Shown: positions 3,426 to 49,678 of the stretch, piece after piece
How positions within the stretch are numbered: the first letter of the stretch is position 1
Layout: each line of letters begins with the position of its first letter
Origin: Escherichia phage vB_EcoM_RZ
Sequence record: MW598459
DNA length: 64,000 nucleotides
Strand: one strand, 5' to 3'
Program-made: the position numbers and the translations under genes
Notes under the pieces: model-generated
Databases searched by the model: none
Told to the model about the DNA's origin: nothing
What the model saw: only the letters and a program-made list of their open reading frames with translations

Positions 3426-3664
3426 TTGGTTTCCTTGATGATAATTACTTGTGCGTTTGATTTACGCTCAGCAACGAGTGCCCAGATAAATGCAATAAAC
3501 CATCCGACCATTGTCCAACCTAACAGGAGGTTAACAAAGAAGATTCCGCAATTACTTTTGGTTCCTCGCAGTAGCGCGATAATCCATGGCAGAAAATATG
3601 CCAGTGCAGCCAGGAAGAAAGAACCAGCACCAAGAACAACAGTACCTGCAATTAATGTTTCCAT
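3422..3664 (-). CDS. imm: Imm-like superinfection immunity membrane protein (80 aa, two TM helices)
   Basis: Track ORF immediately downstream of gene 43 as imm is in T4; size and two-TM topology fit; sequence identity not verified. Confidence 0.45.
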   Translation of the reverse strand: METLIAGTVVLGAGSFFLAALAYFLPWIIALLRGTKSNCGIFFVNLLLGWTMVGWFIAFIWALVAERKSNAQVIIIKETK

Positions 3665-3704
3665 TTTAATATCCTTAATTTAATCATCAGTAGTTGATGG
3701 AGTA

Positions 3705-3734
3705 ATCATACGGCAATCCTTTGCCGTTGTAAAC
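3705..3734 (-). promoter_or_regulatory. Early sigma70-type promoter (-35 GTTTAC, 18 bp spacer, -10 TATGAT) with hairpin CGGCAA/TTGCCG in the spacer
   Basis: Read on minus strand directly between gene 43 stop and imm-like start; followed by conserved leader ..CCATCAACTACTGATGA. Confidence 0.5.
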
Positions 3735-17071: not shown

Positions 17072-17244
17072 AATTTAATTTCCTTAGCTACTGAACAAAA
17101 TACACCACGGTCACAAATCATTTTAATATTAAGGTCAATTATGGTATACCACACATCCAGACTAGATATTTCAGTTACTAGAACAGCTTTGCCGTTGATT
17201 GAATAATACTGGTTGACTTTAATTTCTTTATCTTGGATAGTCAT
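17068..17244 (-). CDS. Small hypothetical protein (58 aa)
   Basis: Hand-translated ORF MTIQDKEIKVNQYYSINGK... served by the early promoter at 17276-17305; stop overlaps next ATG. Confidence 0.35.
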   Translation of the reverse strand: MTIQDKEIKVNQYYSINGKAVLVTEISSLDVWYTIIDLNIKMICDRGVFCSVAKEIKL

Positions 17245-17275
17245 TATGTTTTCCTCATCATTAGTTGATGGGATA

Positions 17276-17305
17276 ATGATACACCGTTCAAAGGGGCTTG
17301 TACAC
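17276..17305 (-). promoter_or_regulatory. Early promoter (-35 GTGTAC, 18 bp, -10 TATCAT) embedded in hairpin AAGGGG/CCCCTT that also terminates nrdH
   Basis: Read on minus strand; conserved leader CCCATCAACTAATGAGGA follows. Confidence 0.5.
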
Positions 17306-17310
17306 CCCTT

Positions 17311-22812: not shown

Positions 22813-23840
22813 TTCAGCAGCTCCAGAGCCTGTTCCAGTTTATCCAGACGATTAGTTGATTCTTCCCAAAGTCGCTTGGCTTTGGTATAGTCTTCAGTTG
22901 CCTTTTTATTAATAGCAAGAGCTTCATTATACGCTGTTTCCAGGGCAACAATTTCAGGCGCTTTTTGTTTCACTGGCTCATTATTCAGATTATCAATCAG
23001 GTCTTCAAGGGTGGTAACTTCATGCGGAGCATTCATAATTTCCTCACTTTTCTTTTTATAAATTTCTGCATCAGTTGGTTGTTTTGCGCATTTAACTTCA
23101 CGCAATGTCACCACAATTTTCCAACCTTTCCAACCATGAGTACTGGTGATAGGGTCTACTTTAATTTTTTCAACAGTACGCATATAATTAAGGGCACACT
23201 GCATCTGTGAAGTAAGCGTGCTCGCGACATCAAGATACTTTTTGACATTTTCTGGAGTAGCTACCGGCGTAAAGAATTCATACTTAACTGTAATAATTAC
23301 CTGGTTTTCACCAGACTCTTTAACATTTATCATGTGCTCAGCCAAATGGGAAATAGTGCGATAATCGCTACCCATCAATTTTGTCGCTGATTTGATGATA
23401 GACATTTTGTTATCTCTGAATTCACGAGCCCAGCAATTTGCGAATTCAGAAACAGTATAGCCTTGTTTATCAAGGTAGTATTTTTCAACATCACCAAACC
23501 AATGATATCCAATTGTACCTTTACCATGTCTGGATTCAACGCCAAACTTATTAAGAAGGTCTTTATTAACCAGGTATGCCAGGACTCGGGAACCTTTAAA
23601 AGTTTTCTTGATATCATCTTTACCTGCACGACTCGCAATAGTCGCGATGTCTTTTTCAAAGCGACCAGATGCAACAATAGTCGAATCAATCTGATTTAAC
23701 CAGGAATTGATAATCGAAAGGATAGCCGATTCACCTGTTAATGGTTTTACTTTTGCATCGATAGTGGTGTTAAAGGCCCGGATATATTCGTTACGTGTCA
23801 TAGTGTTCTCCTCATAAAGTAGGAATTCATTATACTCCAT
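22809..23840 (-). CDS. Hypothetical protein (343 aa) with C-terminal coiled coil
   Basis: Track ORF. Confidence 0.5.
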   Translation of the reverse strand: MEYNEFLLYEENTMTRNEYIRAFNTTIDAKVKPLTGESAILSIINSWLNQIDSTIVASGRFEKDIATIASRAGKDDIKKTFKGSRVLAYLVNKDLLNKFGVESRHGKGTIGYHWFGDVEKYYLDKQGYTVSEFANCWAREFRDNKMSIIKSATKLMGSDYRTISHLAEHMINVKESGENQVIITVKYEFFTPVATPENVKKYLDVASTLTSQMQCALNYMRTVEKIKVDPITSTHGWKGWKIVVTLREVKCAKQPTDAEIYKKKSEEIMNAPHEVTTLEDLIDNLNNEPVKQKAPEIVALETAYNEALAINKKATEDYTKAKRLWEESTNRLDKLEQALELLK

Positions 23841-23859
23841 CCATCCCTGGAAGTAAACA

Positions 23860-25972: not shown

Positions 25973-26497
25973 TTATGCGAGAACCGTCTTTAAACGCTCT
26001 TCAAACTTCTGAAGGAGTACCTGGCGCTCTGCTCTTTGTTTGGTATAGGTTTCAATACGCTCTGAAGTGAGATTGTATTGTTCATTAACTGATTCCCGCA
26101 TGAATTCAGGAATCTCTTTACATGCTTTGATTTCATTGAACTTATCAAGCACCGCTTGTTGTTCAGCAATCAGACCATCATAATATTGGATATCTGATTT
26201 GATGTTTTGTACATCAGATTCAGTAGGCATATTTTTCTTTGCTCTTGTCGCCTGATACTCAGCATTAGTCTCTCTTGACCAGAACAAGGAGCGGTTTTTA
26301 TTGGTGTTTTTATACACATCAACAATACCAACTGAATCAACAGTCACAATCCAGTTCCAGGTGTTTTTATAAGTTTGACCACCTGATACTGTAATCTCAC
26401 CAGCACAAGCAACATCATTAAAGAACTTGCTTTGTGCTTCTGATTTAAAATTACCATTATTGTAATTAATCAGATTAAAGATTGATTTGGCTTCCAT
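25973..26497 (-). CDS. Hypothetical protein (174 aa)
   Basis: Track ORF with early promoter upstream. Confidence 0.5.
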   Translation of the reverse strand: MEAKSIFNLINYNNGNFKSEAQSKFFNDVACAGEITVSGGQTYKNTWNWIVTVDSVGIVDVYKNTNKNRSLFWSRETNAEYQATRAKKNMPTESDVQNIKSDIQYYDGLIAEQQAVLDKFNEIKACKEIPEFMRESVNEQYNLTSERIETYTKQRAERQVLLQKFEERLKTVLA

Positions 26498-26533
26498 TTT
26501 ATTCTCCAGTATTTGGTAACTCAGTATGGGAAC

Positions 26534-26563
26534 ATTATACGTCTATCCCCATACCATGTACAC
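26534..26563 (-). promoter_or_regulatory. Early promoter (-35 GTGTAC, 18 bp, -10 TATAAT)
   Basis: Read on minus strand upstream of ORF 25973..26497; leader of the GTAACTCAGTATGG class. Confidence 0.5.
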
Positions 26564-26874: not shown

Positions 26875-27081
26875 TCACTTGCGACGACGTTTTGGTAATG
26901 GTTTAGGGAAGAACATTGCTTTACCTGCAGGGGTCAAAGTCACACGCAAAGCATTACCAATACCAAGGGATGCTTTAACCAGACCTTTGGCTTTTAACTC
27001 ACCAAATGCTTGACGTTGTTCAGGGTCACGAGTGTTAACCATCAGACCTTTTTCACCAGCAGCTTTGATTAATTCTAACAT
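26875..27081 (-). CDS. Hypothetical basic protein (68 aa)
   Basis: Track ORF. Confidence 0.4.
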   Translation of the reverse strand: MLELIKAAGEKGLMVNTRDPEQRQAFGELKAKGLVKASLGIGNALRVTLTPAGKAMFFPKPLPKRRRK

Positions 27082-27122
27082 TTTATTCTCCGTTTGTTTA
27101 TTTGGTAACTCAGTATGGAATC

Positions 27123-27152
27123 ATTATGCATCATGACCATCTGGTTGTACAC
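27123..27152 (-). promoter_or_regulatory. Early promoter (-35 GTGTAC, 18 bp, -10 CATAAT)
   Basis: Read on minus strand upstream of ORF 26875..27081. Confidence 0.5.
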
Positions 27153-31208: not shown

Positions 31209-31348
31209 AGTTCAAATGGAGCTTTCTGCAAGAGTTCAACCACTTCTTCATCAGTGGCACTGTCCATAAAGATTGCATAATCATTAAGATAGATAACAAC
31301 CTCATCACCAGTATTAACTGCATCAATCTTGATATTTTTAATTCTCAT
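31145..31348 (-). CDS. Hypothetical acidic protein (67 aa)
   Basis: Track ORF directly served by the early promoter at 31377-31406. Confidence 0.4.
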   Translation of the reverse strand: MRIKNIKIDAVNTGDEVVIYLNDYAIFMDSATDEEVVELLQKAPFELCEEDATHLSSAIFSLSYVVE

Positions 31349-31376
31349 TGTATTCTCCTCAGTAGTTGATGGGATA

Positions 31377-31406
31377 ATAGTACACCCTTTTTATAAGGAT
31401 GTAAAC
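31377..31406 (-). promoter_or_regulatory. Early promoter (-35 GTTTAC, 18 bp, -10 TACTAT)
   Basis: Read on minus strand; conserved leader CCCATCAACTACTGAGGAGAATA precedes ATG at 31348. Confidence 0.5.
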
Positions 31407-34806: not shown

Positions 34807-35265
34807 TTAGATATAAATCACTTTTGTGCTAATTTTTCCTTCCAGACGATTAGAGTTAACAAACGCCATACGACAACACATGGTCGGAGACTTCCCAGGA
34901 ATAGCGGGGTTAACTGTCATTCCTAACCACAGGTTCTTGTCCGTGATTTCCAGACGAAGTGGACGGTAGTTCACATTCGGGTCAATTTGTGCTTCAACTT
35001 CCGGGAGTGGTTTCATCTCCAAGAATTCAACGATTTCTTTTACATGTGGTGTGATTTTTCCAAACAAGTCAAAAACATATTGTTCATCAATTTCACGTTG
35101 GATTGCACGGTCCAACAGGTGTGGACTGTACTTAATGAAGAATGCCTCAAGGCCTGCTTCTTTACAAGCCTTGTTGATAGCATTATTAATTTTGAGGAAC
35201 TCCGTTTCAAAAATGCGACGAAGTTTATTGCGGCGAATGTAAACACTTGAATCGATAGTAGTCAT
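34807..35265 (-). CDS. regB: RegB site-specific endoribonuclease (152 aa)
   Basis: Track ORF 34807..35322; ATG at 35265 downstream of early promoter gives MTTIDSSVYIRRNKLRR..., matching T4 RegB from memory. Confidence 0.85.
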   Translation of the reverse strand: MTTIDSSVYIRRNKLRRIFETEFLKINNAINKACKEAGLEAFFIKYSPHLLDRAIQREIDEQYVFDLFGKITPHVKEIVEFLEMKPLPEVEAQIDPNVNYRPLRLEITDKNLWLGMTVNPAIPGKSPTMCCRMAFVNSNRLEGKISTKVIYI

Positions 35266-35292
35266 GATTATCTCCTTTTGTTTGATGGGATA

Positions 35293-35321
35293 ATCATAAC
35301 TCATTTCAATCTGCTTGTACA

Positions 35322-35322
<1 letters not shown>
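35293..35322 (-). promoter_or_regulatory. Early promoter (-35 GTGTAC, 18 bp, -10 TATGAT)
   Basis: Read on minus strand upstream of regB; leader TATCCCATCAAACAAAAGGAGATAATC. Confidence 0.55.
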
Positions 35323-37093: not shown

Positions 37094-37393
37094 TTAGAAA
37101 GAACCAGAGCCTTTAATTGTGTTCTGGCGACCTTTATTTTCTAATTCAGAATGGTCGATTTCGTATGCTTGTGCTACACCAAAGGCCTTTTTAACTTTAG
37201 CTAAAGAACCTTTAGATGTAACAATATTAAAAGTATTACCTTTGGTAAAATCAACCAAATCAACTTGTACACCCTGTTTACCGAGGCTTGCGACAATAGC
37301 ATCAACATATTGTTGGTCTAAAGTACCTTGGACTCCAATTTGGAATGCTTTAGGGGCTTTGGCTTCTGTGATAAATTCTTGATAAGTTTTCAT
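37094..37393 (-). CDS. Internal protein (IPII/IPIII-like) with capsid targeting sequence
   Basis: Track ORF 37094..37432; ATG at 37393 gives MKTYQEFITEA, the T4 internal-protein leader; located beside denV as ipII is in T4. Confidence 0.7.
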   Translation of the reverse strand: MKTYQEFITEAKAPKAFQIGVQGTLDQQYVDAIVASLGKQGVQVDLVDFTKGNTFNIVTSKGSLAKVKKAFGVAQAYEIDHSELENKGRQNTIKGSGSF

Positions 37394-37441
37394 TTTATAT
37401 TCCATTGTTTGGCTGATAAAATCATTATACAACCTTTTTAG

Positions 37442-37858
37442 TTAAGCGTACACAGCTTTCCCATAGTATTTGTACCAAGCAGGCTTTTGAGAAATTTTCT
37501 CATTCAGTCTGGCTTGACTGATTTCAATTGACCAGATTGATGGTTGATAATCATTCTTCCATTCATCAGGAATATCAGTTAAATCTTGGGTAGAAATATC
37601 TTTTATGTTAAACCCTCGCTTTAAACATTCCGCAATAAGTTCTTGATGCCGGTTTTTAAGGAACAAAAGCTTATCATAAAAGAAGATGACATGACCAGTC
37701 CCTAAAAGGAAAGATGATGGGATTTTAAAGTCAGAAACCTTTTTACCATTTTGTACATGCTTACGAACAGCACCAAACACGCGAGGAAGTTCACGATATT
37801 CAGCCATAAGATGTTGGTCAGCGAGTTCAGATACCAGGGTTAAATTAATGCGAGTCAT
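37442..37858 (-). CDS. denV: Endonuclease V DenV (pyrimidine dimer DNA glycosylase, 138 aa)
   Basis: Track ORF; [35 protein letters not shown] matches T4 DenV from memory. Confidence 0.95.
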
Positions 37859-37884
37859 GTTTGTTCTCCGTAGTTGATAGGGTC

Positions 37885-37914
37885 ATTATAACCCTATCAT
37901 TTGGAGATGTACAC
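37885..37914 (-). promoter_or_regulatory. Early promoter (-35 GTGTAC, 18 bp, -10 TATAAT inside hairpin GATAGGGT/ACCCTATC)
   Basis: Read on minus strand between e stop and denV start. Confidence 0.55.
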
Positions 37915-39700: not shown

Positions 39701-40386
39701 TACCAGCCCTCCATAGGGAATTCCAGATATACTTGAGCATTAACGCGGATTTCATTTGTAATCTTTTTAACACGGTCGGTATTACGAGACACACGACCAA
39801 ACCAGCGCCAACCGTTACTTACTGCGCGAGAACCCGTATGCCATGTCTGCCAATCAAACTGGAGCAACGTGCGGTCAGGAGCATCCCACTTGGTTAATTC
39901 ATTGGACTCAATTTTTTCCAGAACTTCTTTATGCCACTGGCGATAGATAAGTTCGCCTTCAGGAATCTGACTAAATTGCGCAGTTCCGGTTGCAAAATAA
40001 GTAGGACACACATCAGCGTTAACAAGACCAAGAATATGTTCAGAATGGTAACGAGGATTGTCATAATCAGGTTGCCCTGCAGTAATAAAGTGTTGACCAA
40101 CCGGAATATCCGGGCGTGGTACATCGTCATGGTGATAACCTGGGATAGCAGGATACCAACCAGGCATCAGCATATGAACCCGAGAATCAAATACAACCTG
40201 GTCGGTGTTCCAATCATCCGGCAGACTCATAATAAAGCTACGAGTAATAGGACCGCCATTGTCAAAAGCGAAAGCCAATGAGCTGTTGAAGAACATAGTT
40301 TCGTTTTTGATTTTATCATTAGAAATTTTACCAGCGAAACTGCCTACTGCATGAGCTTGAGAATTAAAAGTTTTTGGACCGTTCAT
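39700..40386 (-). CDS. Hypothetical protein (228 aa)
   Basis: Track ORF. Confidence 0.5.
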   Translation of the reverse strand: MNGPKTFNSQAHAVGSFAGKISNDKIKNETMFFNSSLAFAFDNGGPITRSFIMSLPDDWNTDQVVFDSRVHMLMPGWYPAIPGYHHDDVPRPDIPVGQHFITAGQPDYDNPRYHSEHILGLVNADVCPTYFATGTAQFSQIPEGELIYRQWHKEVLEKIESNELTKWDAPDRTLLQFDWQTWHTGSRAVSNGWRWFGRVSRNTDRVKKITNEIRVNAQVYLEFPMEGW

Positions 40387-40445
40387 AATATTTTCCTCAT
40401 TGATTGTGGGACCATTGTGTCATAGCCCCACTTGGATGTACACAA

Positions 40446-41405
40446 TTATTTTTCGAAAGGGCGAATTAAATGCTGGTTAGCTTTGAAACGTTTAACATAG
40501 TCTTCGTGACCCAGGGTGTTGTACATATTAACCACTTCCTGATAATGTTCCCAGGCATACTCACGGAACCATCCAGAAGTAATGGAGGTACAGACTTTTT
40601 CCAGCGCAATATGGAAGCTCACGGATGGAGAGATATTGAACTCATTGGGAACCTGCGAACGCTCCAGAGCGAGTACACATGCTTCTTCATAAACCCCTGC
40701 CAGTTTAATAATCTCAGGGAGTGCTTCAAATTTTTCACGCGAGGTCATAACTTCTGAATCATCCTTCATATAGAACTTATATGCAGGTTTATCAGCAAGC
40801 GCCACGGCCTCGTGGATGGAGTCATGGTCAAGGGTATAGATTGTATCATTAAAGAAAGTTTTCTTGCCCACGTCTAGTTTAGGGTGACTATATGACAATG
40901 TTTCTGCCTGGCGCTGCAGCATGATTTTATGCAGTTCGTCATTAAGAACAACACCCTTATTGCGAAGGTAATTAATATGACTCATTGTCTTCAGGAAGAA
41001 TGGATTGTTCTTCAGGTAACGATGAGACAGTTTAATTGCCAGACAAATATCAGGAGTCGCCCAATAGAAACCTGTAAGACGGTCTTTCTTAATATGATTT
41101 TCAGCGTATTTCAAGAGACGATAACTTGAGGTGAAATCTTCATCTTGAAGCTCACCAGTAATTTCTCGTACGTTAGTCAGGGCACGGACAATATAAGCTT
41201 CAAAATAGGTTTCTTTGCCATTGTACATACATTTAAAAGCTTGGACATCAGGGTTATCCACAGGAACATGAGCACCGAACATACGTGCTTTAAAGTGGTT
41301 CCAGGAGCCCTGGTCAGCGATAAAGTCCCAATCAGAGTTTTCAATTTTCTGACTTTCAATCAGACCAGCGTTATGTAATGCACGAGAACCAATAACTAAC
41401 ATCAT
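40446..41405 (-). CDS. Hypothetical protein (319 aa) with N-terminal GS...SDWDF nucleotidyltransferase-like motif
   Basis: Track ORF; MMLVIGSRALHNAGLIESQKIENSDWDF; early promoter upstream. Confidence 0.5.
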   Translation of the reverse strand: MMLVIGSRALHNAGLIESQKIENSDWDFIADQGSWNHFKARMFGAHVPVDNPDVQAFKCMYNGKETYFEAYIVRALTNVREITGELQDEDFTSSYRLLKYAENHIKKDRLTGFYWATPDICLAIKLSHRYLKNNPFFLKTMSHINYLRNKGVVLNDELHKIMLQRQAETLSYSHPKLDVGKKTFFNDTIYTLDHDSIHEAVALADKPAYKFYMKDDSEVMTSREKFEALPEIIKLAGVYEEACVLALERSQVPNEFNISPSVSFHIALEKVCTSITSGWFREYAWEHYQEVVNMYNTLGHEDYVKRFKANQHLIRPFEK

Positions 41406-41433
41406 AATATTTTCCTCATTAGTTGACGAGATA

Positions 41434-41463
41434 ATGATACTACGTTTCTTTAGACTTGTATAC
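41434..41463 (-). promoter_or_regulatory. Early promoter (-35 GTATAC, 18 bp, -10 TATCAT)
   Basis: Read on minus strand upstream of ORF 40446..41405. Confidence 0.5.
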
Positions 41464-41506
41464 TAAATCTTGTACATAATTTTCTTATCACATCCTTGTG
41501 ATTAAA

Positions 41507-41734
41507 TTATTTTCCTAACGAAATACGAGTAGGTTTTTTGCCAAAATATTCTTCATAAGAACCATCTAAACGACCCGCTTTAGACCGACAGTATGAATCG
41601 TACTTTTTGTAATAAGTCATCTCAGTATTATAACGCGGGTGTCTATCAGCCATAATAATACTTAATGGCCAACCTTTGGCATAATCGCGAAGACCATTTA
41701 TTTTACTAATGTATCTTTTCTTTAATTTTAGCAT
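41507..41734 (-). CDS. Hypothetical basic protein (75 aa)
   Basis: Track ORF. Confidence 0.4.
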   Translation of the reverse strand: MLKLKKRYISKINGLRDYAKGWPLSIIMADRHPRYNTEMTYYKKYDSYCRSKAGRLDGSYEEYFGKKPTRISLGK

Positions 41735-41952
41735 GAGCTCGGGTACCAGATTTTACCGTCGGCGCGGGCAACGAAGGTACGACCAGCTTCTTCGCCGTAA
41801 CAAGAGCTATTCAGCCAATCTTCAAGACGAACTTCACCGTCATAATCATCTAGCTCAACACCAAAATCCTGAGCAGAAGCCATATCTTTTACTTTCTTAT
41901 ACAGGGCAGCCAGTTCAAGAGCAGCTTTTTCTAATTCGTTAATATCAGTCAT
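41728..41952 (-). CDS. Small acidic protein, paralog family member (C-terminus ..WYPSSC)
   Basis: Track ORF; C-terminal motif related to the three upstream paralogs. Confidence 0.45.
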   Translation of the reverse strand: MTDINELEKAALELAALYKKVKDMASAQDFGVELDDYDGEVRLEDWLNSSCYGEEAGRTFVARADGKIWYPSSC

Positions 41953-41961
41953 TTTTATTCC

Positions 41962-42174
41962 TTAGCATTCGTAAGAGGAGGACACCCAAGAGGTACCACT
42001 AATTGTAATACAACCATTATAAAGCGTAATATGTCGTTCTAGGTCACGAACACCATCAATGTAGATATCAGCTTCTTCGCGTTCTTCTTTACAAATCTGG
42101 ATAACGTTTTCAATAGCTGCCGCGGCAGTACGGATTGCACAATCTAATTCACGAGACATATAATTCCTTAACAT
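41962..42174 (-). CDS. Small protein, paralog family member (C-terminus ..SWVSSSYEC)
   Basis: Track ORF. Confidence 0.45.
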   Translation of the reverse strand: MLRNYMSRELDCAIRTAAAAIENVIQICKEEREEADIYIDGVRDLERHITLYNGCITISGTSWVSSSYEC

Positions 42175-42449
42175 TCAGAAGAGGAGGACACCCAACCGCC
42201 ATTTTCCAGGTCAGTTGTATAGTCATGAGTGTTAACAATAGCCCATTCAGGATGGCCATATTCTTCCCAATGGGCAAGGTCAGCTTTCAAGGCACCAGGA
42301 GAATAATAGTCACCGCCCATACCGCGAGCAGGGTATATATTAAAATGAGTCTCATATTTGTTTGCAATTTCCTCGGCACGCCGAATAGCTTTATGGATGT
42401 CATTTACTGCGTTAGCCAGTTCTTTATTTTTACGGTAATCATTCATCAT
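42168..42449 (-). CDS. Small protein, paralog family member (C-terminus ..GWVSSSSEC)
   Basis: Track ORF. Confidence 0.45.
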   Translation of the reverse strand: MMNDYRKNKELANAVNDIHKAIRRAEEIANKYETHFNIYPARGMGGDYYSPGALKADLAHWEEYGHPEWAIVNTHDYTTDLENGGWVSSSSEC

Positions 42450-42458
42450 AACGTTTCC

Positions 42459-42749
42459 TTAGCACATTGCCGAAGAGGAGACCCAAGCACCAACTGTAAC
42501 GACACCGTTTTCAACTTCACCGCCGTTGTTTTCAATTTCATCTTTAAACCACTGGGAGCATTCATAACCGACAGGATAATATGTACGGCCTGAACCATAA
42601 TCACCGGTACCGAATTGGATACCATATTCATCTGCGATTTCTTCGCAGTGTTTTTCAATTTCAGAGGTCTTATTTAGAAGAGAATAGATGGCTTTTTCTG
42701 CAGATTTCTCATCATAATACTTGGGGATAGCAATTTCAATTTTATTCAT
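42459..42749 (-). CDS. Small protein, paralog family member (C-terminus ..AWVSSSAMC)
   Basis: Track ORF. Confidence 0.45.
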   Translation of the reverse strand: MNKIEIAIPKYYDEKSAEKAIYSLLNKTSEIEKHCEEIADEYGIQFGTGDYGSGRTYYPVGYECSQWFKDEIENNGGEVENGVVTVGAWVSSSAMC

Positions 42750-43099
42750 GATTTACATTCCTTAATAAAGGTTTCAAGGTCATTACGTTTTGTTTTGTCT
42801 AGGAACTTATTATACTCAGCCATTGCCGAAGCATATCTCTTACGGCTAGGAGCATTCACTGCATTTGTGTGACAGATATCATAAACAACCGGGATAAAAT
42901 AAGCCACAACAGCCGGAGCAATTATCATAAAGAAGCCCATCTCAATAGGCATGACTCCCTCGATTGCAGCCATAACCGTGGTCATTACCAGACCAACCAA
43001 ACCACCGAGCATACCGGTGACAATTCCCAATAATAAATTGCCGCCAATATCATATTCAGCCAATTGATAAACATGTGATGCAAGACTAGGCCGTTCCAT
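42746..43099 (-). CDS. Hypothetical membrane protein with C-terminal FIKEC motif
   Basis: Track ORF 42746..43192 trimmed to internal ATG at 43099 adjacent to the upstream stop; several TM helices. Confidence 0.4.
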   Translation of the reverse strand: MERPSLASHVYQLAEYDIGGNLLLGIVTGMLGGLVGLVMTTVMAAIEGVMPIEMGFFMIIAPAVVAYFIPVVYDICHTNAVNAPSRKRYASAMAEYNKFLDKTKRNDLETFIKECKS

Positions 43100-44016: not shown

Positions 44017-44610
44017 TTACTTAAGTGAATTAATGTATTCTTCAATGTCAGCGGACGTGGTATCCACACCAACCTGTGGGCCTTTGAAGGTTTCAACACG
44101 CATCAGAGTGTCTTCAATATCAATCTTAGTCAATGCAGCGATTTCAACAACATCATCTGCAGTCGCAATACCCAGGGCAGATACCTTACGGGTTTCGCGG
44201 ATGTATTCCAGTTTAACAGCTAGTTCCTGACGAGAATCATCCAACTCTTTAACTTTCAATTTAATTTCATTACGCATTTCAACATAATCATCTGCCTTCT
44301 TACGAAGTTGTTTAGCAGTACGACGATACAGGAGACCCAGTTTAGCATGGACCTGGACATCCGCACCATCAGCAATCAGTTTGCGGATTTCACGCTCTTT
44401 TGAAGCGGCGAGTTGGTCTTTTTCATTCGCTAACTCACGGATGCGTTTTTCTTCATTAACCGACTTAACGTGGGCGGTCTGGAGCTCAGTAATCTTGTCA
44501 ATCAGGGTAGACGCTGCTTGAGTATATTGGTCTTCAATAGACAGATTTTTTGTCATTGCAGTACCCAGTTTGGAGCGGATGAATTCAACAAGTTTCTTTA
44601 AAGTATTCAT
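44017..44610 (-). CDS. Coiled-coil protein (197 aa), possibly PspA/IM30-like
   Basis: Track ORF; heptad-rich throughout; family assignment tentative. Confidence 0.45.
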
Positions 44611-44676
44611 GGTATTTCCTTCAGTTGGTTAATATTTTATTATCCAATGTTTTATTGTGTAACTCAGTATGGAATC

Positions 44677-44706
44677 ATTATGCCTTAAAGCAGGGGGCTT
44701 GTATAC
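44677..44706 (-). promoter_or_regulatory. Early promoter (-35 GTATAC, 18 bp, -10 CATAAT) adjacent to GGGGG/CCCCC hairpin
   Basis: Read on minus strand upstream of ORF 44017..44610. Confidence 0.5.
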
Positions 44707-44718
44707 CCCCTTTTTTAA

Positions 44719-45162
44719 TTAAATTTCAAATTCTTTGCGGAAGTTGGAAGCATAAGACTGAACTGACGCTTTGTTGAATCCAAACTCACGCACAATCATA
44801 TCAATAACAGCTCTGCGAGCAGCACCATTAGACATATTAACAGTTTTGAACATATCATAGCATAAATCTTTGTTGCTCATACCGGAGCGTTTAGGTGCCT
44901 TACGCTCAGCTTTTGGTTCAGCTTTAGGAGTAGGTTTAACTTCTGGGTTAACCTGTCCATCATTCAGACCTTTAAAAATTTTACCTGCCAGAGTTGCCAG
45001 TTTAGCAGCTTCGCCACGAGTGATACCAAATACTGCCGGGTTAAATGAAATACCTTCAGCTGTCAGACGTTTGAAGAACATACGTGCTGCGGATTGTGCT
45101 TCAGCTTCAGAAGAGTTGTTTAATGCCAGTTTAACATACTTAACCAGTTTTGAAGTTTTCAT
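44719..45162 (-). CDS. Hypothetical protein (147 aa), paralog of 45246..45671
   Basis: Track ORF 44719..45213 trimmed to ATG at 45162 (MKTSKLVKY...); shared C-terminal domain ..NGAARRAVID..QSYASNFRK. Confidence 0.5.
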   Translation of the reverse strand: MKTSKLVKYVKLALNNSSEAEAQSAARMFFKRLTAEGISFNPAVFGITRGEAAKLATLAGKIFKGLNDGQVNPEVKPTPKAEPKAERKAPKRSGMSNKDLCYDMFKTVNMSNGAARRAVIDMIVREFGFNKASVQSYASNFRKEFEI

Positions 45163-45204
45163 TTTATTATCCCGTTTGTTTATTTGGTAACTCAGTATGG
45201 GATA

Positions 45205-45234
45205 ATTATACATTATCCCACCTGGAAGTAAAAC
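45205..45234 (-). promoter_or_regulatory. Early promoter (-10 TATAAT inside hairpin TGGGATAAT/ATTATCCCA; weak -35)
   Basis: Read on minus strand upstream of ORF 44719..45162. Confidence 0.4.
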
Positions 45235-45245
45235 ACTTTTCTCAA

Positions 45246-45671
45246 TTATTTTTGAGCTTTGCGGAAGTTGGATGCATATGACTGAACAACAGTCTTTTTG
45301 ATATCATGGGTGGTAACCAGAACATCAATCAGAGCGCGACGAGCTGCATTATCATTCATATCAATTTCTGCAAATGCCTGGAAGCAAATGTCACGAGCGT
45401 TACCAGATTTGGACTGGATTTTTTCTTCTTTAACTTCTTCAATTGGGAATTCAATCATTTCAGCTTGGATTAATTCAATGATAGATTCTTTTGACTGTTT
45501 GGTGTTTACCTTCAGTTCAGAATTAAGGGACTTGGCAATGGCAACAATCTGGGTTGAAGTCAGATGGATAAGTGCATCTTCACGAATGCAGATTTCACAT
45601 ACTTCGTCAGCAACCATTTTGTTAGTGATGCGGGTAACAGAGAATGCAGAGGTCAGGGTCAGAAAGTTCAT
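45246..45671 (-). CDS. Hypothetical protein (141 aa), paralog of 44719..45162
   Basis: Track ORF 45246..45752 trimmed to ATG at 45671 (MNFLTLTSAF...); C-terminus ..NDNAARRALID..QSYASNFRK. Confidence 0.5.
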   Translation of the reverse strand: MNFLTLTSAFSVTRITNKMVADEVCEICIREDALIHLTSTQIVAIAKSLNSELKVNTKQSKESIIELIQAEMIEFPIEEVKEEKIQSKSGNARDICFQAFAEIDMNDNAARRALIDVLVTTHDIKKTVVQSYASNFRKAQK

Positions 45672-45722
45672 TTTATTTCTCCAAAGTTTTGTTTGATTCA
45701 GTGTGTAACTCAGTATGGAATC

Positions 45723-45752
45723 ATTATGCACCCGGTCAATCTGGATGTACAC
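45723..45752 (-). promoter_or_regulatory. Early promoter (-35 GTGTAC, 18 bp, -10 CATAAT)
   Basis: Read on minus strand upstream of ORF 45246..45671. Confidence 0.5.
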
Positions 45753-45790: not shown

Positions 45791-45811
45791 AAAAAGCCCG
45801 CATTGCGGGCT
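45791..45811 (-). terminator. Intrinsic terminator (AGCCCGC-ATT-GCGGGCT plus U-run on minus strand)
   Basis: Perfect 7-bp stem immediately downstream of stop of ORF 45813..46367. Confidence 0.6.
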
Positions 45812-45812: not shown

Positions 45813-46367
45813 TTAGTTCTTATAAAAGCGGAACGGATTTATATGGAAGGCGAGCATAGCCTTAGGGATGGGTCGGGACAGAAGGCTCTTGAGCTTCCAG
45901 CCACAATAAACACGCAGATAAAAGGTGATTCCACCGACCTTAAGATAAGGAACAGAAGCAAAAACACCCCAGGCATTGTCCGTCCACATAAAGAGCCATC
46001 CGTGATGAGCTTTATCCGGGGAACCAGATTCGACATCAGGATTACCTTTATAATGGAATTCTGAATTGCAATCACGACCGAGCTTGTGGTAAGCAAAATT
46101 GTATGCTTTGTTTCGCCAGAGCCAGGCTACTCGTTGGAAGTAAACACCTAATGGCCATTTTCGGATTTTTGACCAACGTTTGACATGACCCCGGTCACCA
46201 TCAATCGGATTATCATAAGTCATCATCCAATCAAACCCGAACGGAAGTTTACCAGTCTTTTTATTATGGAACGGAACTACAAATGGAGCCAGGATAACGG
46301 CCAGAATCATGGAGATAAAATCCAGCGGAACTAACAGAATCCAACTCAAATATTTTAACAGTTTCAT
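45813..46367 (-). CDS. Hypothetical membrane protein (184 aa)
   Basis: Track ORF 45813..46508 trimmed to ATG at 46367 (MKLLKYLSWILLVPLDFISMILAVILAPFVVPF); upstream part of track ORF overlaps the RNA region. Confidence 0.5.
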   Translation of the reverse strand: MKLLKYLSWILLVPLDFISMILAVILAPFVVPFHNKKTGKLPFGFDWMMTYDNPIDGDRGHVKRWSKIRKWPLGVYFQRVAWLWRNKAYNFAYHKLGRDCNSEFHYKGNPDVESGSPDKAHHGWLFMWTDNAWGVFASVPYLKVGGITFYLRVYCGWKLKSLLSRPIPKAMLAFHINPFRFYKN

Positions 46368-46390
46368 ACGTTTCTCTTTAGTTGATTTAT

Positions 46391-46418
46391 AAAAAAGCCC
46401 CAACCTTTCGGAAGGGGC
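46391..46418 (-). terminator. Hairpin with U-run on minus strand, probable terminator of the tRNA/small-RNA transcript
   Basis: GCCCC...GGGGC inverted repeat preceded by A6 on plus strand. Confidence 0.4.
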
Positions 46419-46458
46419 TATACCTTGTCGGGGTTCCACCTGCAAGGCAAGTGTTTGT

Positions 46459-46550
46459 ACGAAACGCCGGGATTCGAACCCGGTTATTAAGCAGTTGACG
46501 CTACTCAATATTTTTAAAAGGCCATATCTCGACCATATCCGAACGTTCCG
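46459..46550 (-). ncRNA. tRNA-like element (canonical T-arm CCGGG-TTCGAAT-CCCGG plus 7-bp acceptor-like stem) without a recognisable cloverleaf; possible small stable RNA
   Basis: Hand-folded from minus-strand sequence; 92 nt between paired acceptor-like ends; D and anticodon arms not identifiable. Confidence 0.3.
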
Positions 46551-46718: not shown

Positions 46719-46958
46719 TCATTCAATTGTAATAGCTAATTTGACTTTAACAACCTTATAATTGGAATCAAGGTCATTGAATTCCATAAAATTTGTTGCT
46801 AGTCTGCGAGTCGGGAAACTTAGATATTTATTATGTTCGGGTGGAGCAGTTAATGCAAACCATGGGACTTGTTTATCATTTTCGTCAAACTCATCAAAGC
46901 TATAAACCAGCTCGTTGCTGGTTATATCCATAACTGCATATGATTCACTAATAACCAT
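46719..46958 (-). CDS. Hypothetical acidic protein (79 aa)
   Basis: Track ORF 46719..47003 trimmed to ATG at 46958 with GAGGA RBS; the TTG-initiated extension overlaps tRNA-Arg. Confidence 0.45.
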   Translation of the reverse strand: MVISESYAVMDITSNELVYSFDEFDENDKQVPWFALTAPPEHNKYLSFPTRRLATNFMEFNDLDSNYKVVKVKLAITIE

Positions 46959-46973
46959 AATATCCTCAGTAAT

Positions 46974-47050
46974 TGGTCGGGGTGGTGGGATTCTAACCCA
47001 CAACCTACGGTTTAGAAGACCGTTGCTCTATACAATTGAGCTACACCCCG
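46974..47050 (-). tRNA. tRNA-Arg (anticodon UCU)
   Basis: Hand-folded cloverleaf: acceptor CGGGGTG/CACCCCG, D-arm GCTC..GAGC, anticodon stem ACGGT/ACCGT with loop CUUCUAA, T-arm GTGGG-TTAGAAT-CCCAC, 3' ACCA encoded. Confidence 0.75.
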
Positions 47051-47918: not shown

Positions 47919-48104
47919 TTACTCACCTTTAGAGATTTTATCCATAACGAAAGAGATTGAACCAATTAAAAATGCAACTACTAAAGAGATTATATTCTCA
48001 GAAGTTGAAAGCATATTCAACATAAAGCCAGCAAACATGCTAAAACCAAAAGTGGTAACAGCAACAAGGGCAGTAACATTTCTAATTAATTCGCAACGTT
48101 TCAT
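47919..48104 (-). CDS. Small membrane protein (61 aa)
   Basis: Track ORF trimmed to ATG at 48104 preceded by conserved leader CAACTACTGAGGAGAATAAA. Confidence 0.4.
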   Translation of the reverse strand: MKRCELIRNVTALVAVTTFGFSMFAGFMLNMLSTSENIISLVVAFLIGSISFVMDKISKGE

Positions 48105-48162
48105 TTTATTCTCCTCAGTAGTTGATAGGTCTAGGTTATGATATACTAGACCAGTAACTGTT

Positions 48163-48384
48163 TTATTCAGCACCAACGGCTTTCAAAAGTTTTTTAAGGT
48201 TGACAATACCACGGGCAGAGAAAGTAACCTTACCACCTGTTTCAGATACAGAACCTGTAAGTTTTGCCAATTTATCATTTGGTAACTTTTTAAAATCCTT
48301 CAGTGTACCATCAAAAGTTTTAGATTGAATCGGCAATTCGTCATGCATTTTAGCTTCGTTAATAAATTCTTGATACGTTTTCAT
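48163..48384 (-). CDS. Internal-protein-like (73 aa) with capsid targeting sequence MKTYQEFINEA
   Basis: Track ORF; T4 internal-protein leader; own early promoter. Confidence 0.65.
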   Translation of the reverse strand: MKTYQEFINEAKMHDELPIQSKTFDGTLKDFKKLPNDKLAKLTGSVSETGGKVTFSARGIVNLKKLLKAVGAE

Positions 48385-48412
48385 TTTTTGACCCTCAGTA
48401 GTTGATGGGATA

Positions 48413-48441
48413 ATTATACGCTATCCCATTTAAAAGTACAC
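48413..48441 (-). promoter_or_regulatory. Early promoter (-35 GTGTAC, 17 bp, -10 TATAAT inside hairpin GGGATA/TATCCC)
   Basis: Read on minus strand upstream of ORF 48163..48384. Confidence 0.55.
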
Positions 48442-48696
48442 TTATTTTTTAGGGATACGATAGTAACGCATCTCAACATCTTTCTGCTTGTACCACTTTT
48501 TGATAAGGTCTTCAGAACCGCTAATAGTAACGATGTCATAACGACCATCATGCGATACTTCAGCACTTAACTGCATGAAATTGTCCAGTGAACGACGGAA
48601 TTCCTCATTGGAAAAACTGCCACGCGGCGAACCAACATAAGCAAACTCAACTTTTGCATTTGCAGATTCAGTAATAAATTCTTGATAAGTTTTCAT
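48442..48696 (-). CDS. Internal-protein-like (84 aa) with capsid targeting sequence MKTYQEFITES
   Basis: Track ORF 48442..48726 trimmed to ATG at 48696. Confidence 0.65.
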   Translation of the reverse strand: MKTYQEFITESANAKVEFAYVGSPRGSFSNEEFRRSLDNFMQLSAEVSHDGRYDIVTISGSEDLIKKWYKQKDVEMRYYRIPKK

Positions 48697-48721
48697 ATAG
48701 TCTCCAGTAGTTGATGAGATA

Positions 48722-48751
48722 ATCATACTACAGTTATCCCATCGCGTATAC
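48722..48751 (-). promoter_or_regulatory. Early promoter (-35 GTATAC, 18 bp, -10 TATGAT)
   Basis: Read on minus strand upstream of ORF 48442..48696. Confidence 0.5.
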
Positions 48752-48752: not shown

Positions 48753-48995
48753 TTATTTTAAGTCTTCCAGACGTTTTTTCATCTTGGTGCCGTTCTTAGC
48801 AATTTCACCCGCGTCTGAACAAAGAGCAAGGAGAGCTTTAACTTTACCCTGGTCGCCTTTAAAAGATGATGCATCTACAGAATCGGCAAGTTCTTTGATA
48901 CGTGCAAACAGGCGCTCTGCTTCAGCAAGGGCTTGACCAAGTTTAACTTCCATACCATGGGAAGATTCTGTTATAAATGTTTGATAAGTTTTCAT
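48753..48995 (-). CDS. Internal-protein-like (80 aa) with capsid targeting sequence MKTYQTFITES
   Basis: Track ORF. Confidence 0.6.
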   Translation of the reverse strand: MKTYQTFITESSHGMEVKLGQALAEAERLFARIKELADSVDASSFKGDQGKVKALLALCSDAGEIAKNGTKMKKRLEDLK

Positions 48996-49284: not shown

Positions 49285-49617
49285 TTATTTATAAAGTTTT
49301 GCCAGTTCTTTACGTCCACGAGCAGACATAATAAATTGTTCATCGCCAATTTTAAAATATGCCATACCACCGTCAACAGCGATACCAATTTCTTTAGTAC
49401 CTTCTTTGCCTTTCCACTTGCCACCAGATTTCAGGACAGCTTCAACTGCAGCTTTGGAATATTTGGACGTTTGAAAACGTTCATTACCAATCTGAAAGAA
49501 AACACCATCTGCATTTTTGGTTAAACCAAATTTCAGAGAGCCTTCACTATCATCAATTGATTTGGTCTCATTGATGGCGGATTCGGCTAAAAACTCGTTG
49601 TAAGTTTTGATGTTCAT
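49285..49617 (-). CDS. Internal-protein-like (110 aa) with targeting sequence MNIKTYNEFLAES
   Basis: Track ORF; own early promoter. Confidence 0.6.
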   Translation of the reverse strand: MNIKTYNEFLAESAINETKSIDDSEGSLKFGLTKNADGVFFQIGNERFQTSKYSKAAVEAVLKSGGKWKGKEGTKEIGIAVDGGMAYFKIGDEQFIMSARGRKELAKLYK

Positions 49618-49648
49618 TTTAACTCCGTTTGTTCGTTGGTGTAGGTGT

Positions 49649-49677
49649 ATAATACTGCACCTACACTCATTTGTACA

Positions 49678-49678
<1 letters not shown>
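49649..49678 (-). promoter_or_regulatory. Early promoter (-35 GTGTAC, 18 bp, -10 TATTAT inside 9-bp hairpin GTGTAGGTG/CACCTACAC)
   Basis: Read on minus strand between 57B stop and ORF 49285..49617. Confidence 0.55.

Follow-up and report, generated by a model that had tools for sequence, protein, structure and literature searches.

Probable PeSL-type early-promoter cassettes and accessory-gene exchange in a T4-like phage of the genus Gaprivervirus

Results

Three promoter cassettes upstream of e.6

The window studied here (the whole stretch of 64,000 nucleotides that was analysed, from Escherichia phage vB_EcoM_RZ, record MW598459) comes from a T4-like coliphage of the genus Gaprivervirus (SP18/CJ20-like) and is collinear with the nrdC..tk and e..tRNA..IP..57B regions of T4. 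Upstream of its e.6 homologue lies an array of promoter cassettes, each predicted to drive one open reading frame (ORF):

44608..44706, minus strand: P-alpha, class-2 cassette for the e.6 homologue (ATG at 44610)
45160..45233, minus strand: P-beta, class-2 cassette for a 147-aa ORF (MKTSK..., 44719-45162)
45669..45752, minus strand: P-gamma, class-2 cassette for a 141-aa ORF (MNFLT..., 45246-45671)
45795..45811, minus strand: intrinsic terminator of canonical form (AGCCCGCAATGCGGGCT, then TTTTTT), lying upstream of the P-gamma -35 by about 45 nt

The -35 of P-alpha, GTATAC, sits in the loop of a hairpin (44692-44711) and is followed by a CATAAT -10 and the leader GATTCCATACTGAGTTAC; a dead copy of an earlier SD/ATG (GGATAATAAAATA) then precedes the SD proper to e.6. 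In P-beta the -35 is TTTTAC, and the -10, TATAAT, forms the loop of a 10-bp hairpin (45197-45221). The 141-aa product is a C-terminal paralogue of the 147-aa one (42% identity over 73 aa, E=5e-16). A Pfam search of the ORFs behind class-2 cassettes found no family. The single Pfam match, DUF7338, belongs to a neighbouring ORF at 45813-46508.

Four genomes display all four possible states of this array, with or without a 98-aa gene and with or without a 101-aa gene; the latter, present in SP18 and CJ20, is missing from the window phage at P-alpha. Compared with CJ20, P-alpha and P-beta read as chimeras whose crossover zones lie in the leader/SD, between the -10 and the ATG. P-alpha matches its CJ20 counterpart until TGGA.AATAAAA and from there on continues as the CJ20 P-epsilon leader and e.6. 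P-beta resembles CJ20 P-beta from -35 to -10, while its leader and gene resemble those of CJ20 P-delta; the crossover zone, CCATACTGAGTTA.CAAATAAA, appears as a 50-bp overlap in blastn. A further breakpoint, with SP18, falls at 45799 within the terminator.

Cassettes across the window

The preliminary description had reported repeated promoter/leader cassettes on the minus strand, and this observation is real. A profile derived from the cassettes, run on both strands of the window, recovered 17 complete cassettes and nothing else convincing; these and two leader-only relics are on the minus strand throughout. Besides the array, they are:

3662..3734, minus strand: class-1 cassette before an 80-aa membrane-like ORF; hairpin in the spacer (3710-3727)
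17242..17305, minus strand: class-1 cassette; -35 in the loop of hairpin 17290-17311
23799..23858, minus strand: early promoter of the nrdC.4 homologue, with another leader, GAATTCCTACTTTATGAGGAG; T4 positional orthologue at 50973
26495..26563, minus strand: class-2 cassette before a 174-aa ORF; 13-pair hairpin (26522-26556) with the -10 in its loop
27079..27152, minus strand: class-2 cassette before a 68-aa ORF
31346..31406, minus strand: class-1 cassette with an exact leader before a 67-aa ORF; terminator-like hairpin and T-run upstream (31419-31446)
35263..35322, minus strand: early promoter of regB; class-1 leader limited to its first ~10 nt (TATCCCATCAAAC)
37391..37453, minus strand: early promoter before an internal-protein gene (MKTYQEFI...); leader of another type
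37856..37914, minus strand: denV class-1 cassette; 11-bp hairpin (37875-37899) whose loop is TATAAT
40384..40443, minus strand: class-1-like cassette; -10 CACAAT bracketed by GTGGG/CCCAC, leader CCCACAATCAATGAGGA
41403..41463, minus strand: class-1 cassette before a 319-aa ORF
46956..46980, minus strand: class-1 leader relic, CCAATTACTGAGGA and ATG directly 3' of a tRNA, without promoter
48102..48129, minus strand: class-1 leader of trna.4 (MKRCELI...), a 'half PeSL' with a degenerate promoter
48382..48441, minus strand: class-1 cassette before an internal-protein gene; ATGGGATA/TATCCCAT around the -10 (48405-48429)
48694..48751, minus strand: class-1 cassette of a second internal-protein gene; weaker hairpin (G·T pairs) around the -10
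49615..49678, minus strand: early promoter with a different leader; 9-bp hairpin (GTGTAGGTG/CACCTACAC, 49639-49666) with the -10 in its loop

The gene behind the 35263..35322 promoter is called regB after its orthologue in DK-13, annotated RegB. The promoter of trna.4 is intact in SP18 and CJ20.

The 17 promoters, of the GTKTAC-N18-TAnnnT type, are intergenic and share one orientation, each lying upstream of a minus-strand ORF. Scanned as GTKTAC, N16-19 and a TAnnnT-like element, the pattern matches 23 minus-strand and 2 plus-strand sites, against about 4.8 expected per strand. The class-1 leader, CCCATCAACTACTGAGGA, has nine matches with at most 3 mismatches (0.02 expected from shuffles), and the class-2 leader, GATTCCATACTGAGTTAC, has five in the window (0.05 expected), all on the minus strand:

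3701, 17272, 31373, 37881, 41430, 46980, 48129, 48409, 48718, minus strand: 5' ends of class-1 leaders
26533, 27122, 44676, 45204, 45722, minus strand: class-2 leaders

A motif search on both strands of the window thus places the cassettes on the minus strand, far above chance. A chance origin of the motifs was rejected, since leader and promoter matches greatly exceed expectation and are strand-specific.

At the level of single sites, the leader positions given earlier point to the same places but are 1-4 nt off, and the sites at 40443, 48129 and 46980 had been missed. Likewise, 35293 had been counted as a class-1 site; its first ~10 nt match that leader, but the remainder does not. The division into two leaders also leaves out four more promoters, which carry others (49678, 37453, 23858 and 35322).

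Thirteen of 18 sites (a count that includes the 48129 relic) lie in the 22-32 kb and 39-49.7 kb segments, where cassettes are about 3.5 times denser. These cassette-rich stretches correspond to the T4 hyperplastic regions nrdC–tk and e–tRNA–IP, and five cassettes have a positional orthologue among the promoters of T4 (nrdC.4, regB, denV, e.6 and trna.4), the denV one corresponding to the T4 promoter at 65413.

Promoter elements and predicted start sites

The -35 hexamer is GTGTAC in ten cassettes, GTATAC in three, GTTTAC in three and TTTTAC in one. Fifteen of the 17 have an 18-nt spacer, equivalent to 17 nt when counted in the sigma70 frame, and a TATAAT-like -10 is found across cassettes. Ahead of the -35, the adjoining 19-nt tract is rich in A+T (75%, with 41.5% A; window mean 60.5% A+T, 31% A), and all 17 cassettes end with a GAGGA/GGAG-type SD and an ATG, 19-61 nt past the predicted start.

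The T4 early-promoter consensus comprises GTTTAC (-36..-31), TAnnnT (-12..-7) and conserved bases near the start. The cassettes agree with this T4-type consensus, and the identical scan also finds T4 promoters. In T4 the scan finds a promoter at 133331; the 7th nt past its -10 is exactly Pe133295 of the T4 record. This named promoter so coincides with the predicted +1, which supports the assignment of the start to the A of CCAT. By homology, start sites, promoter strength and early timing can be predicted from T4, and orthology with the T4 nrdC.4, regB, denV, e.6 and trna.4 promoters suggests immediate-early transcription by unmodified host sigma70 RNA polymerase.

That the sites are instead MotA-dependent middle promoters, or fortuitous sigma70-like matches, is barely credible. 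Many generic TTGACA/TATAAT matches are indeed scattered all over the region, but such a scan is at background (51 promoter-like sites against 42 expected) and, with GTKTAC rather than TTGACA as the phage -35, uninformative; the cassettes defined by GTKTAC exceed chance by far and are strongly biased to one strand. A MotA box, (a/t)(a/t)(a/t)TGCTT(t/c)A, lies about 12 bp upstream of the -10 in place of a -35. A TGCTT box at this distance is absent from all cassettes, where a GTKTAC-type -35 stands instead, and MotA-dependent middle promoters were rejected on this ground. The cassette at 44706 has a TGCTTTA merely 3 nt from its -10.

Hairpins around the promoters

Hairpins overlap or adjoin the promoter in 12 of the 17 cassettes; the other five have no convincing stem. 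The -10 is in the loop in seven cassettes (49678, 48751, 48441, 45233, 40443, 37914 and 26563) and the -35 in two (44706 and 17305), one hairpin is internal to the spacer (3734), and in two cases a separate hairpin with a T-run lies upstream (45795-45811 and 31419-31446). About half of the early promoters have a repeat with the -10 in its loop, in the window phage as in T4.

When each promoter's own arms were paired and compared with arms swapped between promoters, the value over 32 promoters (16 from the window, 16 from T4) was -5.25 kcal/mol for own arms and -2.77 for swapped ones, and stems of at least 6 bp were formed by 18 of the 32 promoters versus 18% of the chimeras (p<0.0005). For the window alone, the values were -5.52 and -3.56 kcal/mol (p<0.0002). 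The inverted repeats with the -10 in the loop thus co-vary in the window phage and in T4.

An intrinsic terminator is a GC-rich hairpin with a U-tract immediately after it on the transcribed strand. Most of the hairpins overlapping a -10 or -35 are not followed by a U-tract (their tails are, for example, CAACTACT, ACTGAGTT and GCTTTAAG), so termination of the upstream gene is plausible at 2-4 sites only; the canonical look is confined to 45795-45811 and 31419-31446. The earlier proposal that the -10 or -35 often lies within a hairpin is thus upheld, but its second half, that this hairpin also terminates the upstream gene, would apply to few sites. A generic terminator scan picked out 45795-45811 and 44692-44711.

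Two leader classes

Class 1 corresponds to the downstream half of the early-promoter consensus long known from T4 and is pan-T-even. T4 has the class-1 string at trna.4, denV and nrdC.8; its trna.4 promoter, at 73572, reads GTTTAC-N18-TACTAT-TACCCTATCAACTACTGAGGAGAATAAAATG, and T4 promoters share CTATCAACTAC(TGAGGAG) after the -10. Class 2 is a variant restricted to Gaprivervirus, in whose genomes it occurs in 7-14 places each, with nine exact copies per genome, all of them in promoter context and none elsewhere. All 27 class-2 copies with promoter context in IMG/VR belong to VR20, VR25 and VR26, and none of the 36 singletons found elsewhere in that database has such a context. The two conserved leaders proposed at the outset are real repeats, but they are not two special elements. 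By eye, class 2 is class 1 without CAACT, with the SD shifted downstream. Nor does the leader seem to be an element separate from the promoter, as it would span from -3 across the predicted start into the 5'UTR.

Folding finds the leaders unstructured (minimum free energy 0 to -5.3 kcal/mol, z >= 0 in 11 of 12), and 37-53% of their bases are A. A riboswitch or attenuator in the leader RNA was rejected, there being less structure than in shuffles, and Rfam, searched over the whole window at gathering thresholds, returned two tRNAs only and no leader family.

The leaders might be no more than the footprint of recent tandem duplication of a gene with its promoter, a leftover paralogy neither selected nor mobile. 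The 147-aa and 141-aa ORFs of the array are indeed paralogues over their C-terminal 73 aa, and the DNA similarity between units carries on from the cassette into the upstream gene's 3' end (44631-44763 versus 45157-45287, ~74%). An identical class-2 box, however, precedes at least eight unrelated ORFs, next to promoter spacers that are themselves unrelated; the leader is still ~100% identical where the paralogous coding sequences have diverged to 42% aa identity; and T4, which belongs to another genus, has class 1 as well. Duplication is contradicted for most sites and, as the same leader precedes unrelated genes, was rejected as sole origin; we regard it as very improbable.

The class-2 box, CCATACTGAGTTAC, could otherwise be the binding site of a genus-specific protein or RNA regulator of about nine accessory genes, with promoter and homology roles secondary. 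It is almost invariant genus-wide at about nine copies per genome, unlike the variable spacer next to it and the variable distal leader, and it is absent from other T4-like genera. Against this, no candidate regulator was found, the leader has neither an Rfam match nor structure, the box overlaps the start site and is already under promoter constraints, and gene conversion among the repeats predicts equal invariance. Such a regulator site seems to us improbable. The sameness of the leader copies could reflect functional constraint, gene conversion or both.

Breakpoints relative to related phages

Cassette positions were compared with gene presence or absence in three relatives, as had been proposed, and an enrichment was found: cassettes make up 3.1% of bases but contain 9 of the 42 indel breakpoints (p=5e-6). 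Breakpoints with SP18 and CJ20 lie at 27127 and 27152, within the 27079..27152 cassette, and others at the denV cassette (37869-37918) and the trna.4 relic (48126-48129); a 32-bp overlap marks the internal-protein promoter 37391..37453 (37364-37395). SP18 breaks at 40399-40435, in the 40384..40443 cassette, where its genome contains one more gene, preceded by a class-2 cassette, and at 48665 and 48759, beside the 48694..48751 cassette. Breakpoints at 41421-41456, in the 41403..41463 cassette, correspond to an extra 815 bp in CJ20 and 733 in SP18.

By gene junction, a breakpoint is found at 10 of 18 cassette junctions (5.4 expected) versus 21 of 86 others (hypergeometric p=0.011). The three genomes behind this modest, 2.3-fold enrichment are related, and their events lack phylogenetic independence. 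About three quarters of the breakpoints are outside cassettes, mostly at cassette-free gene junctions, conserved internal-protein gene starts, paralog repeats, homing-endonuclease insertions and the tRNA block. To call the 22-32 kb and 39-49.7 kb segments cassette-built, as was done earlier, goes too far: cassettes are denser there, but only the above 9 of 42 breakpoints with the three relatives lie in a cassette. Moreover, a whole-gene indel can survive only with its ends close to gene boundaries, so survivorship instead of causation could explain part of the association.

It could be argued from these data that the leaders are conserved purely as an optimal discriminator, start and 5'UTR, recombination being incidental and of no special importance for genome plasticity. 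Class 1 is conserved from T4 to Gaprivervirus at orthologous promoters, the leaders are A-rich, unstructured and SD-bearing, and most breakpoints are at junctions without a cassette. We nevertheless consider a purely expressional role unlikely: two cassettes of the array are chimeric with crossover zones within the leader, overlaps of 13, 32 and 50 bp are seen at cassette breakpoints, breakpoints are 2.3 times as frequent at cassette junctions as elsewhere, and mini-circle junctions of RB49 and phi1 have been mapped by experiment (PMC2839356).

Discussion

The cassettes are very probably sigma70-dependent early promoters of the PeSL type that serve as portable homology in a T4-like Gaprivervirus phage. 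PeSLs are defined by an AT-rich tract, a sigma70-type promoter, a stem-loop (before or overlapping the -35, in the spacer, overlapping the -10 or after it), and an SD with ATG (Arbiol 2010, PMC2839356; Comeau 2014, PMC4122927). The identification of the cassettes with PeSLs, put forward in the preliminary description, holds for every sequence-level feature: promoter, AT-rich tract, stem-loop (12 of 17), SD and ATG, and a hyperplastic location as judged by indels, to which the array upstream of e.6 adds its two chimeric cassettes. They represent a known kind of element, and recombination within it appears to have swapped neighbouring accessory genes in this phage.

The closest parallels are the PeSLs of RB49 and phi1 (PMC2839356), which have the same architecture, the same concentration in hyperplastic regions and crossovers between the -10 and the ATG; their mini-circle junctions were mapped experimentally. 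RB49 PeSLs have a near-perfect TTGACA and stems of G-runs and C-runs, with promoter, terminator and mini-circle activity proven by experiment, whereas the window cassettes have GTGTAC or GTATAC as -35 and heterogeneous stems mostly without U-tracts. With the PeSLs of PST and T4 (PMC4122927) and the classical T4 consensus, they share a promoter of the TTTACW-N17-TAYWAT type, five positional orthologues and the class-1 leader, found verbatim in T4 (CCTATCAACTACTGAGGA at trna.4, identical to the leader of the window's trna.4). In contrast to PST/T4, the third position of the -35 is G or A in 13 of the 17 cassettes, and there is a second, genus-restricted leader. Stem-loops lie just upstream of the promoter according to PMC4122927, whereas many bracket the -10 in the window phage and in T4 as analysed here.

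In the shuffling of the T-even IP locus, as far as it is relayed in PMC4122927 (Repoila et al. 1994), IP-type ORFs are exchanged between conserved promoter/leader segments. Similarly, differing IP-type ORFs (MKTYQEFI...) occupy 48.1-49.7 kb and 37.4 kb in the window, and only the cassettes align with SP18 and CJ20. Unlike in that account, in the form in which it is relayed, the 5' coding sequence of IP genes is also a crossover site here (37364-37395 and 48982), outside the promoter cassette. The gain and loss of single accessory genes between repeated boundaries of the same orientation also recalls integron gene cassettes, although this is a functional analogy only: there is neither integrase nor attC, each unit has its own promoter, general homologous recombination is presumed, and the cassettes are not members of that family.

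We propose that each cassette reads, in order, an A/T-rich tract, a GTKTAC -35, a 17-nt spacer (sigma70 frame), a TATAAT-like -10, the leader, an SD and an ATG. The first 3 nt of the leader (CCC or TCC) would occupy -3..-1, with the A of CCAT as the predicted start. The resulting 5'UTR would be unstructured and A-rich in both classes, of 19-34 nt with ACTGAGGA as ribosome-binding site in class 1, and of 31-61 nt, with a second SD (GGAGAATAAAATG) coming after, in class 2. In about half of the promoters, the 'stem-loop' would be the inverted repeat that holds the -10 or -35 in its loop. The most likely role of this hairpin is in read-through RNA, where it would serve as an attenuator or stabilise the 3' end and, in rarer cases, truly terminate transcription. 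As 20-50 nt are repeated in one orientation before unrelated genes, they can provide portable homology, and crossovers between the -10 and the ATG may delete, insert or re-promote whole genes while leaving expression unbroken; we infer this direction and mechanism of recombination from the comparisons above.

A more speculative and quite unlikely reading is that the co-varying repeat around the -10 and the near-invariant class-2 box at the start site together form a dedicated control element. One possibility would be a DNA or RNA structure coupling upstream read-through to the firing of the next promoter; another would be a Gaprivervirus-specific regulator site marking a regulon of about nine accessory genes.

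With portable early promoters as the preferred interpretation, the current view of T4-type genome organisation is unchanged. A literature search on promoters of Gaprivervirus, SP18 or VR7 found nothing relevant, and the cassettes offer a clean map of early transcription units for a genus whose promoters are absent from the searched literature. A compact example from nature is offered by the e.6 array, with four gene-content states in four genomes, and since its crossover zones are readable inside the promoter leader, it would be convenient for testing cassette-mediated exchange.

Leader motifs and early promoters

The window comes from a T4-like phage in the genus Gaprivervirus (SP18, CJ20, DK-13, VR20/25/26), with an early region on the minus strand that is collinear with T4:

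22-32 kb, minus strand, early region: T4 nrdC–mobD–tk
39-50 kb, minus strand, early region: T4 e/nudE–e.2..e.8–tRNA–trna.3/.4–internal proteins–57B/57A

Both stretches fall in parts of T4-type genomes that are regarded as hyperplastic in the papers on promoter-early stem-loop (PeSL) cassettes (PMC2839356, PMC4122927).

Both conserved leaders of the preliminary description proved real and strand-specific: the class-1 leader CCCATCAACTACTGAGGA has nine matches in the window (up to three mismatches; 0.02 expected) and the class-2 leader GATTCCATACTGAGTTAC five (0.05 expected), all on the minus strand. At its 3' end every site has a Shine-Dalgarno (SD) sequence and then the start codon (ATG) of an ORF on the minus strand, and every site but 46980 follows a promoter GTKTAC-18 nt-TAnnnT (17 nt in the sigma70 frame), degenerate at 48129. 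The proposed sigma70-like promoter is borne out by a pattern scan, with 23 minus-strand and two plus-strand matches (about 4.8 expected per strand), and by a profile built from the cassettes, which retrieved 17 complete cassettes and no other convincing match on either strand. The original sites were confirmed with small corrections, such as the addition of an overlooked cassette at 40443, which is one of the 17. MotA-type middle promoters and a chance origin of the repeats were rejected on sequence and statistics.

The -35 hexamers are GTGTAC (10 cassettes), GTATAC (3), GTTTAC (3) and TTTTAC (1), and the 19 nt 5' of them are 75% A+T. GTGTAC or GTATAC thus occupies 13 of the 17 cassettes, versus GTTTAC in T4; with the next A, the hexamer reads TGTACA in most cassettes, and GTATAC is itself a palindrome.

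Judged by sequence, the class-1 leader is already known, being present behind T4's own early promoters. T4 carries GTTTAC-N18-TACTAT-TACCCTATCAACTACTGAGGAGAATAAAATG, with the class-1 leader, at 73572 before trna.4, and close relatives of it precede denV, nrdC.8, e.8 and nrdC.10. By position, five of the window's cassettes are orthologous to T4 promoters (those of nrdC.4, regB, denV, e.6 and trna.4). Class 2 was absent from the 100 kb of T4 scanned. Two weak outliers aside, BLAST found it in Gaprivervirus records only, with 7-14 sites in each genome; an exact IMG/VR scan gave 27 copies with promoter context, nine each from VR20, VR25 and VR26 and on the same strand, and none of the 36 singletons elsewhere in IMG/VR had such context. 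By eye, class 2 looks like a derivative of class 1 that lost CAACT and had its SD shifted downstream; T4 also has a long-leader layout like that of class 2, for example at e.8.

The T4 record places early promoter Pe133295 exactly at the seventh nucleotide past the -10 of the promoter that we detected at 133331. By this rule, transcription in the window is predicted to start at the A of CCCAT (class 1) or TCCAT (class 2), so that leader bases 1-3 would occupy -3..-1, in agreement with the preference for C at these positions in RB69-type early promoters. The predicted transcribed leaders (19-34 nt in class 1, 31-61 nt in class 2) contain 37-53% A and, in 11 of 12 cases, have less structure than their shuffled counterparts; short, A-rich and weakly folded, the leader is thus an open 5'UTR with a ribosome-binding site. 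That the class-2 box might bind a dedicated regulator is improbable, as neither an Rfam search nor leader folding yielded anything in its favour. Many SD regions (cassettes 26533, 27122, 45722, 31373, 37881 and 48718) include GGAG, the RegB cleavage motif according to the T4 record, and regB itself lies behind cassette 35322; RegB cleavage of such leaders, leading to early shut-off, is likely.

Hairpins

Hairpins were found in 12 of the 17 cassettes, seven of them with the -10 in the loop (three examples listed):

37914: -10 in loop, TGATAGGGT[TATAAT]GACCCTATCA
45233: -10 in loop, GTGGGATAAT[GTATA]ATTATCCCAT
49678: -10 in loop, GTGTAGGTG[...TATTAT.]CACCTACAC
44706, 17305: -35 in loop (2 cassettes)
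3734: hairpin within spacer (1 cassette)
45795-45811, 31419-31446: hairpin 5' of promoter, with T-run (2 cassettes)

Every stem position fits one of the five PeSL subclasses of Arbiol et al. (PMC2839356). T4 promoters also show the -10-in-loop layout, with wholly different stems (e.g. GATGAGGTA/TACCTCATC, CCTAGAATTGTGA/TCACAATTCTAGG). When the upstream arm of each of 32 promoters was paired with its own or with another promoter's downstream arm, own arms folded at -5.25 kcal/mol versus -2.77 for swapped arms (permutation p < 0.0005), and stems of at least 6 bp occurred in 18 of 32 promoters versus 18% of chimeras; window promoters alone gave -5.52 versus -3.56 (p < 0.0002). The stems are therefore under selection and are no by-product of the consensus. 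No U-tract follows the promoter-overlapping hairpins, and termination of the upstream gene is therefore unsupported by sequence at most sites: the hairpins had been rightly noticed, but their terminator role was overstated.

On the minus strand, an A-run lies 5' of the -35-in-loop hairpins at 44692-44711 and 17290-17311. In the plus-strand direction each is a hairpin followed by a T-run (AGGGGGCTTGTATACCCCCT TTTTTAATTA), so that antisense (plus-strand) transcripts running into the early region would meet what look like intrinsic terminators.

Probable exchange at cassettes

The clearest evidence for putative recombination at cassettes is at 44.6-45.8 kb, where four promoters, told apart by their spacers, have the class-2 leader in common. 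This array upstream of e.6 has four states in four genomes (Pα, Pβ and Pγ being the window cassettes at 44676, 45204 and 45722):

Window: Pγ-[141 aa]-Pβ-[147 aa]-Pα-[e.6]
DK-13: as window, plus [98 aa]-Pδ after Pβ
SP18: as window, plus [101 aa]-Pε after Pα
CJ20: both additions, [98 aa]-Pδ and [101 aa]-Pε

The 45204 cassette matches CJ20 Pβ from -35 to -10, and CJ20 Pδ with its gene from the leader onward, the switch falling inside CCATACTGAGTTA.CAAATAAA. The 44676 cassette matches CJ20 Pα through TGGA.AATAAAA and thereafter CJ20 Pε and e.6, a switch that left a dead SD/ATG copy 5' of the SD of e.6 itself. Each of the two crossovers falls in the interval from -10 to ATG, to which Arbiol et al. 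(PMC2839356) also mapped mini-circle junctions. Retention of the leaders by functional constraint alone would account for class-1 conservation from T4 to Gaprivervirus but leaves these chimeric cassettes unexplained, and we consider it unlikely. Tandem duplication accounts for some of the local pattern, as the 147-aa ORF is a C-terminal paralogue of the 141-aa ORF, but not for an identical leader before at least eight unrelated ORFs.

In CJ20, e.6 has its own promoter upstream (at about 38100-38200 of the reverse complement; GTGTAC..TAGTAT, -10 within a GGGAACAT/ATGTTCCC hairpin), which lacks the class-2 box and is deleted in the window. Upstream of the array, a DUF7338 ORF (231 aa, 45813-46508) is largely deleted in SP18, which has only an annotated pseudogene remnant (compared at SP18 44617-44790); the terminator that separates this ORF from Pγ contains the SP18 breakpoint at 45799.

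Chained blastn alignments of the window with 50-kb stretches of DK-13, SP18 and CJ20 revealed, in the range 3.6-52.2 kb, 42 separate breakpoints of indels or replacements. Of these, nine are inside cassettes, which make up 3.1% of bases (binomial p=5e-6). Gene junctions provide a fairer null than base coverage: among 104, 18 have a cassette, 31 a breakpoint and 10 both, versus 5.4 expected (p=0.011). The extent of the proposed cassette-built accessory regions was overstated, as the remaining breakpoints lie elsewhere: at overlapping stop/start junctions, in a conserved 5' coding sequence (MKTYQEFI...) common to internal-protein genes, in a series of small tandem paralogues, at two homing-endonuclease insertions in DK-13 and in the tRNA block.

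At 41500-42750, a series of small minus-strand ORFs (70-96 aa) are nearly identical at their 3' ends and around the SD (GGGTGTCCTCCTCTT..GAATG.TAAGGAAT); in comparison with CJ20 and SP18, replacements begin and end at these repeats (breakpoints 41937-41943 and 42161), which are thus crossover sites without any promoter. Several ORFs open with MKTYQEFI... (37364-37395, 48982-48995, 48384, 48696; MNIKTYNEF... at 49617), as do, at these loci, the SP18 Ip10 gene and the DK-13 and CJ20 genes named 'putative internal head protein'; two breakpoints are in this coding sequence, not in a promoter (37364-37395, with a 32-bp overlap, and 48982). The putative homing-endonuclease genes of DK-13 (5308-5928 and 17504-18184), absent from the window, correspond to window 10046-10093 and 21468-21488 and explain two non-cassette indels.

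SP18 (46154) and CJ20 (reverse complement, 42806) have an intact trna.4 promoter, GTGTAC..ATGGGATA..TATGAT. Degenerate sequence replaces it in the window (48102-48160) and in DK-13, with the class-1 leader kept, an arrangement similar to the 'half PeSL' in Comeau 2014 (PMC4122927). At 46956-46980, a tRNA gene is followed directly by a promoterless piece of class-1 leader (CCAATTACTGAGGA plus ATG); the 79-aa ORF downstream would rely on the tRNA transcript for its expression.

With stem positions and crossover interval matching Arbiol et al. (PMC2839356), the proposed identification as PeSL-type early-promoter cassettes, a known kind, is right in kind. To this kind the Gaprivervirus-specific second leader, the GTGTAC/GTATAC preference at -35, the quantitative covariation of -10-in-loop stems in T4-type early promoters and the four-state cassette array 5' of e.6, none of which we found in the literature searched, are additions.
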